Counted from the first letter of the stretch, positions 5,267-53,459 are shown. The stretch: DNA of 64,000 bases from Candidatus Poribacteria bacterium (GCA_963668035.1 OY764073.1:4814653-4878652); one strand, 5' to 3'. A program made the numbers and translations. Notes: generated from the sequence alone by a model not told the origin.

Positions 5267-5839
5267 ATGACAGCGATTGCCGTGCAAACCCATCTGACAC
5301 CTGAGGAATACCTCGCGTGGGAACGCAAAGCACCGTTCAAAAATGAATATCTCAGTGGACAGATACTCGCGATGTCCGGTGCAAGTCTCGCGCATAATCT
5401 GATCACAGGCAATATATTTAATGGACTTTACAACCAATTGACAGAACGGGAGTGCCTCACCTTTAGCGGTGAAATGCGCGTGAAGGCGAATCCTATGACC
5501 TCTTACTTTTATCCGGATGTCGCCGTTGTCTGTGATGAACCCCGTTTTGAAGATGATGTGTTTGACACGCTCCTGAATCCAACTGTCGTTGTGGAGGTGC
5601 TTTCTCGCTCAACTGCGGTTTATGACAAAGGTGAAAAATTTGAGTCGTATAAGCAGATCGCGTCCTTGCAAGAATACATCCTTGTTTCACAAGAACGGGT
5701 AAACGTTGAACGCCATTTTCGCTTAGGGACGCAGTGGCGGGCGATCAAATTTCACGAACTTGCCGATATACTGCCGCTGGATTCAATTCGCTGTCAACTG
5801 CCCTTGAGTCACATCTATAGACGCGTCAAATTTACATAA
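5267..5839 (+). CDS. Uma2 (DUF820) family putative endonuclease
   Basis: EEYLAWE...EYLSGQILAMSGASLAHN, YPDVAVVC and VVEVLSRST...DKGEKFESY. ATG 5267 follows GGGGAG. The longer ORF from 5111 would overlap the sulfatase gene. Confidence 0.75.
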   Translation: MTAIAVQTHLTPEEYLAWERKAPFKNEYLSGQILAMSGASLAHNLITGNIFNGLYNQLTERECLTFSGEMRVKANPMTSYFYPDVAVVCDEPRFEDDVFDTLLNPTVVVEVLSRSTAVYDKGEKFESYKQIASLQEYILVSQERVNVERHFRLGTQWRAIKFHELADILPLDSIRCQLPLSHIYRRVKFT

Positions 5840-5957
5840 GCATCGGACACATAGTTTTTGGTTAACGTGAGTTTGATAAAAGCATATTGTAGCGCGATGC
5901 ACGTCGCATCTGGGCGGGTACGCCGCAAAACTTTCCAGTTTGTGCTACAAGGGTCGC

Positions 5958-5982
5958 ACTGAAAACTGATAACCGATAACCC
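5958..5982. repeat. solitary arm of the heptamer repeat family (ACTGAAAACTGATAACCGATAACCC)
   Basis: Same TGATAAC-type heptamer array as at 17434-17466, 21961-21990 and 61781-61811. No opposing arm was seen here. Confidence 0.6.
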
Positions 5983-6005
5983 TAAAGACTAAAGAAAGGA
6001 ACGTA

Positions 6006-6854
6006 ATGGCGAGAGCTTATGCCCCCGGCAATATTTCGTGTGTTTTCAAGGTTATTCCGCACGCCGACCCGGCGCGTATGCACTCGCTCGGCATGGGTTT
6101 CACTGTTAAAGAAGGTGTAGAAGTCAGCGTCTCTGAGCAAAACGAGACGGAAGTGCTATTCAATAACGAGCGCATCAATTTCCCGACGGTCGTTGCTGTT
6201 GTTAATAGACTTATTCAAAGCAGTATTGCTGTAGGCATAAAGGTCGTCATTACGTCGCCACTGCCCCTCGGTTGTGGTTTTGGGCTCAGCGGTGCCGCAG
6301 CACTTGCAACTGCTTACGCGCTCAACGAACGCCTGTCTTTACGCAAAGGTAGCGAGGCGCTCGCGATGATAGCACACATCGCAGAGGTTGAGAACCGGAC
6401 AGGATTGGGTGATGTCTGTTCGCAATATCACGGCGGTTGCCTTGTCAAATTGAAGGAAGGGGCTCCTTTAGTTGCGGATAGACTACCGATTGCAGAGCAG
6501 CCGATCTACTATCGCTACTTCGGACCGATTCGGACAAGCGAGGTGCTTGGAAACAGAGAACAGACGCTCCGTATCAATCGTGCAGCAGATGTTGCGTTGC
6601 GTACATTGCAAACGCTTACCAGTGCTAAGCCGAATGCAGATCTCTTTAGTGCCTGCTTCGCGGTCTCAAAACAGTTTTCGGTAGCGAGCGGTTTGCTGTG
6701 TGATTCACGGGTGATAGAGACGATTACGGCTATTGAGGCAGAAGGCGGCGTTGCGTCAATGATAATGTTAGGGAACGGTGTATTTAGCACACATTCTTTT
6801 GAAGATGCAGTGGAAACGAGACTTGTTCACAATCCAGCACGCTTAATTTTGTAA
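6006..6854 (+). CDS. GHMP-superfamily kinase, pantoate kinase-like (COG1829-type)
   Basis: AYAPGNISCVF, GCGFGLSGAAALATAYAL, AHIAEVENRTGLGDVCSQYHGG and ASMIMLGNGVFS resemble archaeal pantoate kinase as I recall it. Confidence 0.6.
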   Translation: MARAYAPGNISCVFKVIPHADPARMHSLGMGFTVKEGVEVSVSEQNETEVLFNNERINFPTVVAVVNRLIQSSIAVGIKVVITSPLPLGCGFGLSGAAALATAYALNERLSLRKGSEALAMIAHIAEVENRTGLGDVCSQYHGGCLVKLKEGAPLVADRLPIAEQPIYYRYFGPIRTSEVLGNREQTLRINRAADVALRTLQTLTSAKPNADLFSACFAVSKQFSVASGLLCDSRVIETITAIEAEGGVASMIMLGNGVFSTHSFEDAVETRLVHNPARLIL

Positions 6855-50017: not shown

Positions 50018-50066
50018 AATTTTATTCTGATGTTTTCATCAATCTTCGGACAGGAGCCCCCATGCT

Positions 50067-51095
50067 TTAGCTTGGGGAGGAATGTCCGCTCCTATAGTTA
50101 AAGTTAATGCGTGTGAGTGTTTTAAAATCAGATCGTTTCGCACCTGTTGTTAAGCGTTTGCCAGTTTCTAAACTATAAAGTGCAAACAAGCCTTTCGCAT
50201 TGACGCCAGATAGGCGTGTCAAACCATATTTGATATGTTTAACCAAAGTGTTTTTGATTAAACCTTGACCTAATACAGTTCCACCATATCTTGAACGTTT
50301 TCGTCCTTTTGATTCTTGTTCTCTGTGCAACGTTCTGCGTTTGATAGGTATAGGGGATATACAAAAAATATCAGTATTATCAGGTATCTCTGTTCCACCT
50401 ACAGTGTGATATGCCAGACACCAACTATCCACACAATGTGCGTCAAATATTTCTGATAGTTTCTTTGACGACTTCTTGAGACCGAGACGATCGCGTATCT
50501 CTTTGGTTTCGTATCCTTGTAGTGTCAGTAGTTTCCAACGCTTTTCTATCTCGGTATAGAACCATTGCTTACCGACTTCCAAAGGACTGAAAGATTGATT
50601 CCATTTATTCGCACGTTTAATTGTCCGTGCTTTAATGTCTTCTACACAGACGTGTGTGATAGGATAGAGTTTGGAAAGCCAGTCAAGAATACGCAACTTC
50701 CAATCCCACCTTGCACGTGTCCCCGCGGGCATACGTTCTTTGTTCGCAAGGCGGTTCGTTCTGTTTGGACGGTTCGGACACTTTCGGGAACGTCTGCCTC
50801 TACGCAACTCACGACGCTTTTCTACTTTCTTTCCTACCTTGTTGTGAGCATCCGCTTGCACATTCAAATAGGTATGTGACTCTGATTTGACAGTCCAGCC
50901 TTCTTTCTTACTACCGGGGTCTACACCTACACATATCTCTTGTGTCCATTCCGTCGTATCGTAGTTGAGTCTAATACAGAATATACCATTAGACCAATAG
51001 GGTGTTGCCAATCTTTTTTTGATTAGCATACCGGCTTTGTTCGGATGAGTTGGCATTAAGCGTTTACCGTCTTGACTCGTTACAGGAACAAACAT
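50067..51095 (-). CDS. isrB: IsrB-type OMEGA nuclease (IscB homologue lacking HNH; RRXRR/PLMP + split RuvC)
   Basis: PLMP-like GKRLMPTHPNKAGMLIKK, RuvC-I GVDPGSKKEGW, bridge helix KRRELRRGRRSRK, RuvC-II HVCVEDIKA, and RuvC-III FDAHCVDSW. There is no Cys/His HNH insert and no Zn ribbon. Confidence 0.8.
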   Translation of the reverse strand: MFVPVTSQDGKRLMPTHPNKAGMLIKKRLATPYWSNGIFCIRLNYDTTEWTQEICVGVDPGSKKEGWTVKSESHTYLNVQADAHNKVGKKVEKRRELRRGRRSRKCPNRPNRTNRLANKERMPAGTRARWDWKLRILDWLSKLYPITHVCVEDIKARTIKRANKWNQSFSPLEVGKQWFYTEIEKRWKLLTLQGYETKEIRDRLGLKKSSKKLSEIFDAHCVDSWCLAYHTVGGTEIPDNTDIFCISPIPIKRRTLHREQESKGRKRSRYGGTVLGQGLIKNTLVKHIKYGLTRLSGVNAKGLFALYSLETGKRLTTGAKRSDFKTLTRINFNYRSGHSSPS

Positions 51096-51296
51096 ACTTT
51101 GTAATCTCCCTTTCGGGTTATATATTGCCCCTTCCAGATCGCAGTATCAAAGTGGGATCAGACGAGGGGAGTATCCGAAACATAGTTGAGGCTGCCACGC
51201 CCAAGATACTGCGATATTTTACTGTAGAAAATAGTTTAACTTGTGGAGTGAACGTTTGGCATACGCTTCGCACAAGCCCCATGCTTTAGCTTGGGG
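51096..51296 (-). ncRNA. candidate omega-RNA scaffold of the IsrB element
   Basis: ORF-free leader on the isrB strand. Perfect 11-bp long-range pairing of 51138-51148 with 51205-51215, a CCC-GAAA-GGG tetraloop hairpin at 51108-51117, and the terminal palindrome at 51276-51296. The position matches the IscB/IsrB paradigm. Confidence 0.55.
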
Positions 51297-51330
51297 TTAT
51301 TGACCAGAAACCCAATATTTAAAAAGTCCG

Positions 51331-52155
51331 TTAACCCATTAGGGTGCGATTGGGCTGGCTAAATCCGATGCCACGTTTGGAGGTCTCAATAAATTCAAGA
51401 AGGTATTCAACTTCTGGAGTCGGTTCGAGTTCTTCCTTGACTCTCGCAACCGCATGTTTCAGAGGTATACCGGAACGGAACAAGATGCGGAACGCCTTTT
51501 TCAACGCTGCAAGCGTTTCAGGAGTCAGCTGAGACAACGGATTAATCCGCGATGTTCGGATGCCGATACGGTTGAGACTCCGTACACGTGCGGGTTGTCC
51601 TGCAGACAGCATAAAGGGTGGAATATCTTGGACAATCTTTGAGAACCCGCCCGCCATCGCCATTTTGCCGACACGCACATATTGGTGGAGCGCGGCATGC
51701 GCTCCCAACCGAACATCATCTTCAATCACAACATGCCCCGCAAGCGACACAAAATTTGCCATGATCGTCCTATTGCCGACGATAGTGTCATGTGCAAGAT
51801 TAACCCAATTCATCAGCAGATTGTTGTCGCCAACGATAGTTGATCCCTCCTCAAATGTTGATCTGGAGATAGAAACGTATTCGCGCAAAATATTGCGATC
51901 ACCGATCTTCACATAACTCCGCCAACCATCGTACTTCAAGTCTTTAGATTGATTCCCAATAGTAGCCCCGAAGAAAATCTCACATTCTTCACCAATCGTT
52001 GTCCATTTCTCGATCTGAACATGCGGACCTATTACGGTGCCACGCCCGATATGAACGTCTTCACCGATAAGGCTATAGGGGCCAACTTTGACGCCCTCTT
52101 CCAGGGTTGCTTTTGGAGAGATAATAGCCGTCGGATGAATATTAGTTTCTAACAT
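51331..52155 (-). CDS. lpxA: acyl-ACP--UDP-N-acetylglucosamine O-acyltransferase
   Basis: Left-handed beta-helix hexapeptide repeats (IHPTAIISPKATLEEGVKVGPYSLIG...) plus the LpxA C-terminal helical domain. Confidence 0.9.
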   Translation of the reverse strand: MLETNIHPTAIISPKATLEEGVKVGPYSLIGEDVHIGRGTVIGPHVQIEKWTTIGEECEIFFGATIGNQSKDLKYDGWRSYVKIGDRNILREYVSISRSTFEEGSTIVGDNNLLMNWVNLAHDTIVGNRTIMANFVSLAGHVVIEDDVRLGAHAALHQYVRVGKMAMAGGFSKIVQDIPPFMLSAGQPARVRSLNRIGIRTSRINPLSQLTPETLAALKKAFRILFRSGIPLKHAVARVKEELEPTPEVEYLLEFIETSKRGIGFSQPNRTLMG

Positions 52156-52172: not shown

Positions 52173-53459
52173 TCAGACAGATGCCAGGACGATGGATAGT
52201 TCAGCCTCAGTCGCAAGTTCGTCTCCTACATAAACCCGTCCTTCAATTCGCGCAAGCCTGCTGCGCAATTGGGCAACTTCTATTTCCAATCGCAGTTGAT
52301 CGCCAGGAATAACAGCGCGTCGGAACGTTGCTTTACTTATTGAACGGAAGTAACCGAGTTCACCCTCTTTACCGATATCCCGAAGCACAAGCCATGCAGC
52401 GAGTTGCGCCAAAGCTTCAATCTGTAGCACCCCCGGCATCACAGGCTGCGTCGGGAAGTGTCCTTCAAAGATCGGTTCGTTGTACGTCACGTTCTTGATA
52501 CCAACCGCCCGTTTTTTACTTTCATATTCGATGACTCTATCTACCATACACATCGGATGCCGGTGCGGTAACACTTCGTAGATCTCTGTTACCTCAATAG
52601 GTTCTTGAACCGGGGGCTGTTGAAGATACCCCGCCTCAGCGAGGGCTTGCACAAATTCAGCATGGAAGGTATGACCTGTCCGCATCGCCATAACGTGCGC
52701 CTTCGGGAGATGCCCAGCCAAATAAAGATCGCCAATCAGGTCTAAAACTTTATGGCGGACAAACTCATCGTCAAAGCGGAGCGGCGTGCTCGGTTCACCT
52801 GCTGCGTTGATAACCAGAACGTTATCATAACTGGCACCTTTTCCGATGCCGAGTGCTTGGAGGGCTTCGATCTCATTTTCAAAACAGAAGCTCCGCGCGG
52901 GTGCTATGTCACGGGCATACAATTCTGGCGTTATTTCAAATGTCGCTATTTGCGGAGTCGTTTGTGGGTGGGCGTAAACGAATGTCACTTCTAACGCATC
53001 AGCGGGCAATAAAACGAGTTGTCTGTCCCCTGACGAGAGTGAAAATGGCTCTGCCACCTCAATAAAATTCCGAGGTGCATCTTGTGAGATAAGTCCTACC
53101 GCTTGAATATTTTCCACGTAAGGCATCGCACTCCCGTCGAGACCCGGCGGCTCCTGAGCATCCAACGCTACGATCGCATTGTCAACACCGAGTCCCCCTA
53201 AAGCAGAAAGAACATGTTCCACGCTACTCACCGTTGTCCCATTACTGCGTAAGCTGGTGCAGCGTGGCAAAACGTCTGACCAGTTTTCCGGACATACCTT
53301 CACTTCCGGAGCGTCTGCTATATCCACACGCCGAAAGACGATACCGGAATCCACCGGTGCCGGTTTCAAGGTTAATGTCACAGGTTCCCCTAACATTAAC
53401 CCCTTTCCTGTAATTGTTATCTCGTTTTGAATTGTTTGCTGTGAATCTGCTTTTTCCAT
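52173..53459 (-). CDS. lpxC: bifunctional UDP-3-O-acyl-GlcNAc deacetylase / 3-hydroxyacyl-ACP dehydratase (LpxC-FabZ fusion)
   Basis: N-terminal LpxC (QQTIQNEITITGKGLMLGEPVTL, HTFHAEF) fused to FabZ (LPHRHPMCMVDRV, GHFPTQPVMPGVLQIEALAQ). Confidence 0.9.
   Translation of the reverse strand: MEKADSQQTIQNEITITGKGLMLGEPVTLTLKPAPVDSGIVFRRVDIADAPEVKVCPENWSDVLPRCTSLRSNGTTVSSVEHVLSALGGLGVDNAIVALDAQEPPGLDGSAMPYVENIQAVGLISQDAPRNFIEVAEPFSLSSGDRQLVLLPADALEVTFVYAHPQTTPQIATFEITPELYARDIAPARSFCFENEIEALQALGIGKGASYDNVLVINAAGEPSTPLRFDDEFVRHKVLDLIGDLYLAGHLPKAHVMAMRTGHTFHAEFVQALAEAGYLQQPPVQEPIEVTEIYEVLPHRHPMCMVDRVIEYESKKRAVGIKNVTYNEPIFEGHFPTQPVMPGVLQIEALAQLAAWLVLRDIGKEGELGYFRSISKATFRRAVIPGDQLRLEIEVAQLRSRLARIEGRVYVGDELATEAELSIVLASV

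Follow-up and report, generated by a model that had tools for sequence, protein, structure and literature searches.

A predicted IsrB nickase and a divergent HEARO-type RNA in a non-autonomous IS200/IS605-family element of the Poribacteria lpxA-lpxI spacer

A stretch of 64,000 nucleotides from a Candidatus Poribacteria bacterium (GCA_963668035.1 OY764073.1:4814653-4878652), referred to here as the window and numbered from its first letter, contains a 1265-bp mobile element at 51304..50040 on the minus strand, in the spacer between the host genes lpxA and lpxI. The element is a non-autonomous member of the IS200/IS605 family. It carries isrB, a gene for a protein of the IsrB family, preceded by an RNA whose paired positions covary between copies and which is read as the guide RNA scaffold (ωRNA) of the protein. 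The catalytic residues are kept by selection, the boundaries are fixed by comparison with many copies spread through Poribacteria genomes, ATGA adjoins one end, and a cognate-looking gene for the transposase TnpA is found in another genome. By analogy with published systems, the RNA would guide the protein to sites beside a target-adjacent motif (TAM), which the protein would read and nick, and the nick would serve homing of the element. The reading as a whole, a non-autonomous IS200/IS605 element with an IsrB RNA-guided nickase and its ωRNA in the lpxA-lpxI spacer, is given a probability of about 0.9. The parts of the element and its immediate flanks are as follows.

50040..51304, minus strand: whole mobile element, 1265 bp, non-autonomous IS200/IS605-type, with ωRNA and isrB as cargo
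51305..51324, minus strand: predicted guide segment TTTTAAATATTGGGTTTCTG, host DNA directly 5' of the scaffold
51096..51304, minus strand: ωRNA scaffold of divergent HEARO type, about 209 nt, predicted from HEARO alignment and covariation
51277..51296, minus strand: first subterminal hairpin CCCCAAGC-TAAA-GCATGGGG, the first ωRNA stem-loop and presumed TnpA-binding hairpin
50067..51095, minus strand: isrB open reading frame (ORF), with PLMP, split RuvC, arginine-rich bridge helix, a short linker in the place of HNH, and a C-terminal β-rich domain resembling the TAM-interacting domain
50058..50077, minus strand: second subterminal hairpin, identical in sequence to the first, with the isrB TAA (50069-50067) in its loop
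50040..50057, minus strand: TAM-proximal terminus (...GCTCCTGTCCGAAGATTG), conserved among copies
50036..50039, minus strand: ATGA (TCAT on the opposite strand), target/TAM motif of host origin directly next to the element

The IsrB protein

IsrB proteins, characterised as a family since 2021-2022, are small DNA nickases that are guided by RNA and related to the ancestors of Cas9. The isrB ORF of the window runs from ATG to TAA at 51095..50067 on the minus strand and encodes 342 amino acids (aa), while the plus-strand translation of 50067-51095 is riddled with stops. A sequence-only reading had described a 342-aa ORF at this location as an HNH-less IscB homologue of the IsrB type. Its location and every motif that it quoted recur in the translation; it gave no strand, and the translation places the gene on the minus strand. 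The motifs are QDGKRLMPTHPNKAGMLIKK at residues 8-27, CVGVDPGSKKEGW at residues 55-67, the arginine-rich bridge helix KRRELRRGRRSRK at residues 93-105, THVCVEDIKA at residues 147-156, and IFDAHCVDSW at residues 216-225. In the PDB alignment the bridge helix pairs with RRNLRRARRYRK of DtIsrB, the IsrB of Desulfovirgula thermocuniculi (8DMB; Hirano et al. 2022, PMC9581776).

The claimed IscB-family core is borne out by profile and structure databases. The Pfam family RRXRR (PF14239) matches residues 3-157 with 104 bits and E=8.7e-30. When the single sequence is compared with all of the PDB, DtIsrB is the top match (E=6.8e-35, residues 3-287), and with a 72-member family profile this match strengthens to E=7.3e-40. 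The PLMP domain contains RLMPT at residues 12-16, aligned with RPLMPT of DtIsrB. VGVDPG, VCVED and AHCVD align with AVDPG, VTED and THAND of DtIsrB, so that the predicted catalytic residues D59, E152, H220 and D223 all fall on the D, E and H-D motifs of 8DMB (DPG, TED and H..D), as the sequence-only reading had expected of a RuvC nuclease.

The absence of HNH and of a zinc ribbon, both of which had been claimed, also holds. The linker between RuvC-II and RuvC-III (residues 154-219, 66 aa) contains no cysteine and no histidine, and Pfam gives no HNH or OrfB_Zn_ribbon match in the 342-aa protein even at E<=1. Cys245 is the sole cysteine of the C-terminal 110 aa, hence there is no CxxC pair. These features bear on whether the protein belongs to another RuvC nuclease family, either an IscB with a degenerate HNH or a TnpB, which is extremely improbable. 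NCBIfam guided_IscB does match the N-terminal half (positions 3-158 of 314), and among folds the IscB structures rank second, but the score of 86.7 bits lies below the cutoff of 175, as would be expected of a protein that lacks the HNH insert. IscB sequence matches in the PDB end at about residue 110-157, whereas the IsrB match continues to residue 287. IscB in the strict sense was rejected for want of an HNH inserted in RuvC, the linker being only 66 aa long and free of cysteine and histidine. TnpB was rejected because there is no OrfB match and no C-terminal CxxC pair, and the RNA lies 5' of the gene and not 3'. The protein is therefore assigned from its sequence to IsrB, the HNH-less IscB branch of the OMEGA systems.

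A structure model points the same way. A single-sequence model was unusable (predicted local distance difference test, pLDDT, of 35), and the AlphaFold2 model built from a 72-sequence alignment reaches a pLDDT of 66 and a predicted template modelling score of 0.54. Confidence is good in the PLMP region, the RuvC core and the C-terminal β region. The best Foldseek match of this model is 8DMB (E=9.5e-23, template modelling (TM) scores of 0.58 and 0.60, 336 of 342 columns, 29% identity), which answers the comparison with the IsrB structure proposed earlier. IscB structures come next and are followed by bacterial RuvC, and Cas12f folds match only marginally (E>=2e-3), a further point against TnpB. 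The N-terminal domain is modelled as β-β-α-β-β with a pLDDT of 80-92, and a helix of low pLDDT at 87-104 covers the bridge helix region. C-terminal β strands are modelled at 284-326 with a pLDDT of about 80, in a model whose overall TM score to 8DMB is only 0.58.

Comparison between copies suggests that the enzyme is kept active. The comparison set comprises 80 Poribacteria copies with flanks (loci L001-L080), with further lpx relatives such as L081, L086 and L120. Among 69 intact copies, P15 of the PLMP domain and D59, E152, D153, H220, D223 and R314 are invariant, and the ratio of nonsynonymous to synonymous substitution rates (dN/dS) relative to the window copy has a median of 0.086 and a maximum of 0.146. 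The low ratio and the invariant catalytic residues together indicate that the nuclease is maintained by selection. By the model, R314 may be equivalent to the TAM-reading R323 of DtIsrB. If this holds, residue 317 likely corresponds to Q326 of DtIsrB, the reader of the fourth TAM base. Residue 317 (codon at about 50145-50147, minus strand), three positions beyond R314, is occupied by T in 56 copies and by Q in 12. Copies with T317 and copies with Q317 are alike flanked by ATGA.

The protein thus resembles DtIsrB in the order of its parts (PLMP, RuvC-I, bridge helix, RuvC-II, short linker in the place of HNH, RuvC-III and, by prediction, a C-terminal β domain), in its similar size (342 aa against 353 aa), in the aligned catalytic D/E/H/D, in the position of the ωRNA 5' of the gene, and in an ATGA that falls within the NTGA TAM. 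It shares only about 29% identity by Foldseek, has T or Q at the Q326-like position, and is accompanied by a scaffold of about 209 nt against 262 nt. DtIsrB comes from a thermophilic Firmicute, whereas the host here is a mesophilic sponge symbiont. The IsrB interpretation of the sequence-only reading is supported, and none of the results that could have spoken against it did so. The protein is a true but unremarkable representative of the IsrB family, which was already known, and the picture of what IsrB is does not change.

The upstream RNA and the predicted guide

The leader upstream of isrB, which the sequence-only reading had mentioned for co-expression, does exist, as a structured RNA conserved between copies at 51096-51304 (minus strand). 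At the gathering threshold, Rfam gives no match in the whole window (the HEARO threshold is 83 bits). The only family found by a permissive scan is HEARO (RF02033), which scores 19.6 bits (E=0.58) at 51304..51120 of the minus strand. A cutoff of 15 bits for HEARO was used for the same purpose by Meers et al. (10.1101/2023.03.14.532601). In 9 of 10 other copies a full-length HEARO alignment (model 1-211) lies at the same position with 23-41 bits.

The fold was derived from an alignment of 50 distinct copies, extending from the element boundary to the isrB ATG. RNAalifold predicts 41 pairs, 19 of them with compensatory double changes. A curated structure of 10 helices comprises 46 pairs; one of the helices is a candidate CCCC/GGGG pseudoknot. 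In this structure 95.0% of the cells pair, compared with 28-45% when the partners are slid, and 21 of the 46 pairs are changed on both sides; none of 500 shuffles reaches any of these measures. Covariation backs eight helices across the full 209 nt, and five of the six pairs of the first subterminal hairpin covary. The pseudoknot helix shows no covariation at all and is a proposal only. The last scaffold hairpin holds the Shine-Dalgarno sequence of isrB, and a Shine-Dalgarno sequence is likewise found in the last ωRNA hairpin of DtIsrB (PMC9581776).

By alignment and covariation, the upstream 209 nt are thus a structured, divergent HEARO-type ωRNA scaffold. Like HEARO, the RNA spans the model from 1 to 211 end to end from the element boundary, begins with a CCCC...GGGG hairpin and has a long-range stem. 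It differs in scoring 20-41 bits against a gathering score of 83, as a divergent and shorter variant that escapes Rfam annotation. Its alignment and fold resemble those of HEARO, but Rfam's own criterion leaves it outside the family. With about 209 nt it is also shorter than the average of 242 nt given by Meers et al. (10.1101/2023.03.14.532601).

The same 209 nt could be imagined as a transposon end and 5' untranslated region, that is, a TnpA-binding hairpin joined to a translation leader and no guide scaffold. Such a double role would agree with the duplication of the first hairpin at the other end of the element, as expected of TnpA sites, with the Shine-Dalgarno sequence in the last hairpin and with a HEARO score below threshold. 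It is nevertheless very improbable, for the eight covarying helices extend over all 209 nt, beyond the terminal hairpin, the HEARO model aligns end to end at the same position in 10 of 11 copies including that of the window, and the upstream RNA is the scaffold in solved IsrB and IscB complexes (PMC9581776).

If the 209 nt form an ωRNA scaffold, the guide should lie immediately upstream of it. Conservation between copies stops exactly at 51304, and the junction tables show a variable flank upstream. The 20 nt at 51305..51324 directly abut HEARO model position 1 and are not conserved between copies, and published guides have 16-20 nt (PMC9581776). By analogy, 51305..51324 would be the guide of the ωRNA. 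It begins 6 nt past the lpxA stop codon. A consensus scan for a minus-strand promoter or terminator between lpxA and isrB found none, which is a weak negative. Because the predicted guide lies outside the element near the lpxA stop and no promoter-like or terminator-like site is seen on this strand, the ωRNA probably arises by read-through from the lpxC/fabZ-lpxA operon, which would also carry lpxI expression across the insert.

Element boundaries, mobility and proposed mechanism

In blastn comparison with the 80 copies, 51304 is the first homologous position (GTCAATAACCCC...), and homology runs out at about 50036-50040. The far end reads ...CCGAAGAT(N0-3)G in 78 copies; next come ATGA, or rarely GTGA, and unrelated sequence, and the junction tables show that ATGA adjoins the TAM-proximal end in nearly all copies. 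There are no terminal inverted repeats, and the flanks lack a target duplication. The 20-nt hairpin CCCCAAGCTAAAGCATGGGG occurs exactly twice in the window, where none is expected by chance, and its ωRNA-side copy lies 8 nt inside the element end. All 58 copies with both ends defined have similar hairpins at either end. The two hairpins are identical over 20 nt in the window, and most other copies have similar, non-identical pairs. The isrB stop TAA sits in the CTAAAG loop of the TAM-proximal hairpin.

Empty sites place the ATGA outside the element. Relatives with 88-90% identical LpxI have lpxA followed directly by lpxI, without insert. The empty site of L086 reads ...TTTCTG|ACGAAAACATCAGAA and that of L120 reads ...TCTCTG|GTGAAAATATCAGAA, while the window reads ...TTTCTG[element]ATGAAAACATCAGAA. 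The position orthologous to ATGA is ACGA in L086 and GTGA in L120. Since the motif position is kept in empty sites, ATGA is host sequence and the element is 51304..50040. A terminal GATGA as part of the element was considered and rejected, because the ATG is often the start of a host ORF and A(C/T)GA or GTGA is retained in empty sites. In the reconstructed empty site the predicted guide TTTTAAATATTGGGTTTCTG would directly precede ATGA. The flanking ATGA fits the published NTGA TAM of IsrB, and reading of this TAM by the window protein would follow by analogy with the literature.

The 36-nt segment that L086 (about 2355-2390) and L120 (about 2325-2360) carry exactly where the element inserts is flanked by GTTTCTG-like repeats and absent from the window lineage; deletion before and deletion after the insertion are both possible. 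It holds a small hairpin with a compensatory change, ATCTT...AAGAT in L086 and CGATCTT...AAGATCG in L120.

The element is one of many. A GTDB scan with one genome per species finds 185 relatives, all in Candidatus Poribacteria, with many copies per genome and at least 14 in OZ244616.1, and a protein database holds 3618 relatives. The same insertion, 99.6% identical, occurs in a second assembly (L081). Within the 64-kb window nhmmer finds no orphan ωRNA or end remnants elsewhere, so the window has a single element copy. Subterminal hairpins, absence of inverted repeats and of target duplication, and a short fixed motif are shared with IS200/IS605 elements such as IS608 and ISDra2. In contrast to typical IS200/IS605 elements with tnpB cargo, the cargo here is isrB, and a candidate TnpA is found only in a related genome.

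The mobilising Y1 TnpA of IS200/IS605 elements is often encoded elsewhere. An IS200 TnpA probe matches nothing in the 64-kb window and no Y1 TnpA in 79 of 80 IsrB-centred loci. In L040, from another Poribacteria genome, a Y1_Tnp gene (Pfam E=2e-34) lies at 5611-6024 on the plus strand, about 2 kb downstream of an IsrB copy. Ahead of the gene, TCA...TCTTCGG...CCCC-hairpin(TTTA loop) shows homology to the TAM-proximal end of IsrB elements as read on the other strand; this upstream end is at about 5470-5510, and the locus stops before the far end of the Y1 element. From its sequence, this Y1 element is a candidate for the autonomous partner of the IsrB elements.

The window copy might instead be stranded or domesticated, an immobile or nuclease-dead passenger or regulator inside the lpx operon. 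No TnpA match and only one element copy are found in the window, the copy sits in an essential operon where excision and retention dynamics may be constrained, and domestication of TnpB relatives into RNA-guided regulators is known (PMC10705468). Such a state of the window copy is nonetheless improbable. All catalytic residues are intact and invariant with dN/dS of about 0.09 against 68 other copies, and no damage is seen in either end, either hairpin, the guide position or the TAM. The insertion is recent, being absent from relatives with 88-90% LpxI identity, and the many diverged copies per genome argue for ongoing spread.

Published work on related elements suggests how a mobile IsrB element would operate. 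IsrB with its ωRNA nicks the non-target strand beside an NTGA TAM, and ATGA targets are cleaved (PMC9581776). In IS605-family elements, the nuclease cuts the donor joint left by TnpA excision, which lets recombination bring the element back; one motif is read by both transposase and nuclease, for GstIscB the TAM TTCAT (10.1101/2023.03.14.532601). In iscB elements the right end of the transposon bounds the ωRNA, the TAM is found on the 5' side of the left end, and transcription of the guide comes from outside the element. Most iscB and isrB elements are non-autonomous, with the ωRNA side as the TnpA-defined right end (10.1101/2023.03.14.532601). The present element resembles GstIscB and ISGst of the IS605 family in being non-autonomous, with the ωRNA at its right end, a guide predicted to be transcribed from outside, and co-orientation with the upstream gene (10.1101/2023.03.14.532601). 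The GstIscB TAM TTCAT is the reverse complement of the ATGAA seen here. GstIscB has an HNH and makes double-strand breaks, whereas the protein of the window, without HNH, is a predicted nickase.

By this analogy, transcription from lpxA would run on through the 20 nt of host flank serving as guide, the 209-nt scaffold and the isrB ORF. IsrB, with PLMP, split RuvC, bridge helix and TAM-interacting domain but no HNH, would bind the ωRNA. The complex would find an empty site, in which a guide-matching flank is followed by the host ATGA, and nick its non-target strand, either after excision by a Y1 TnpA acting in trans or on an unoccupied sister or homologous copy. The nick would lead to recombinational re-copying of the element, and thus to homing and retention. 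Excision and insertion by TnpA would use the two similar subterminal hairpins and the same TCAT/ATGA motif.

Several points weigh against this reading. The locus is known from sequence alone, and both activity of the protein and its expression are predicted. The sequence alignment with 8DMB ends at residue 288, and the TAM-interacting domain rests on a model of moderate confidence. The HEARO score in the window is far under the gathering score, and the RNA assignment rests on the covariation analysis. The nearest empty sites, at 88-90% LpxI identity, hold the extra 36 nt at the insertion point, so that the precise ancestral empty site is a reconstruction and not an observation; when metagenomes were scanned for the exact junction TTTCTGAYGAAAACATCAG of an empty site, the 32 matches were all due to chance and without flank similarity. 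With TnpA not found in the 64-kb window, present mobility of the window copy is unproven. IsrB is only a nickase, and a nick would have to suffice for homing in vivo.

Insertion at start codons and the host locus

The host motif beside the element is often a start codon. In 40 of 71 copies, an ORF of 100 codons or more starts from the ATG within the adjoining ATGA. After removal of duplicate sites the count is 27 of 57, compared with 15.9% of the other ATGA sites in the same flanks (p=2.7e-8), in statistics that use crude gene calls and from which insertions common by descent between genomes are not fully removed. By the same ORF-based calls, 7 of 54 insertions are intragenic, compared with 70% of control ATGA sites. 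Non-intragenic sites are start-like in 24 of 47 cases (51%) against 16% of controls, with an odds ratio of 5.4 (p=2e-7). Reconstructed empty sites read as a Shine-Dalgarno sequence, a spacer and ATG, for example CTAAGGAGTATCC|ATGAAA. About half of the related elements split a co-oriented host gene exactly between its Shine-Dalgarno spacer and its ATG, for example in L075, L021, L016, L008, L010 and L011. In the window copy the ATGA is not a gene start, for it opens only 5 codons and lpxI begins 19 nt further on.

With ATGA(A) as its target/TAM, an element would land precisely between the Shine-Dalgarno spacer and the host ATG. The isrB stop is fixed 27-31 nt upstream of the host ATGA, a spacing which could allow coupled or re-initiated translation of the displaced host gene. 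It is conceivable, though somewhat doubtful, that the Poribacteria IsrB clade is specialised as a parasite of start codons that borrows the promoter and 5' untranslated region of the host for its guide RNA. The pattern could also be a by-product of the TAM sequence together with selection for transcribed and tolerated sites. It agrees with the orientation bias that has been reported and with a need for transcription from outside, and would offer a concrete explanation for that bias of iscB and isrB. The text of Meers et al. (10.1101/2023.03.14.532601) makes no statement on start-codon insertion, and a literature search found no paper linking Poribacteria with IscB or IsrB. In the flanks of the copies, Rfam gives two sub-threshold matches that are probably due to chance: CRISPR-DR36 (L054 5819-5854, plus strand, 21 bits) and the glutamine riboswitch (L015 4765-4829, minus strand, 22 bits).

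Poribacteria are sponge symbionts, and their IsrB lineage is under-annotated. The sequence-only reading had predicted that standard pipelines would call the protein hypothetical or an RRXRR-domain protein, and the named relatives, from Poribacteria, are indeed 'hypothetical protein' or 'RRXRR domain-containing protein'. The whole clade carries such labels, and its ωRNA is invisible to Rfam. It numbers at least 185 copies in GTDB Poribacteria and thousands of metagenome proteins, intact and under strong purifying selection. The insertion-site preference is possibly informative. The clade supplies dozens of natural triplets of predicted guide, target and TAM, for which empty sites can be recovered, together with a candidate cognate TnpA and a compact scaffold of about 209 nt. 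It would thus be a convenient natural system for how a nickase, in contrast to the double-strand-cutting IscB and TnpB, supports transposon retention. It also raises the question of how a host tolerates a 1.27-kb insert between its signals and a coding sequence, here in the essential lipid A operon.

The host genes on either side of the element are co-oriented with isrB.

51331..52155, minus strand: lpxA, upstream host gene, an ORF whose Pfam annotation comes from the identical arrangement in L081
49214..50017, minus strand: lpxI, downstream host gene, beginning 19 nt past ATGA

Exact database look-ups returned no record for the window LpxA or for protein P0001. Upstream of lpxA, lpxC and fabZ form one fused ORF of 428 aa at 52173-53459 on the minus strand. 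Its Pfam families are LpxC and the FabA-type dehydratase, as annotated in the identical gene of L081-L083. This fusion heads the gene string, which reads lpxC/fabZ-lpxA-[IsrB]-lpxI.

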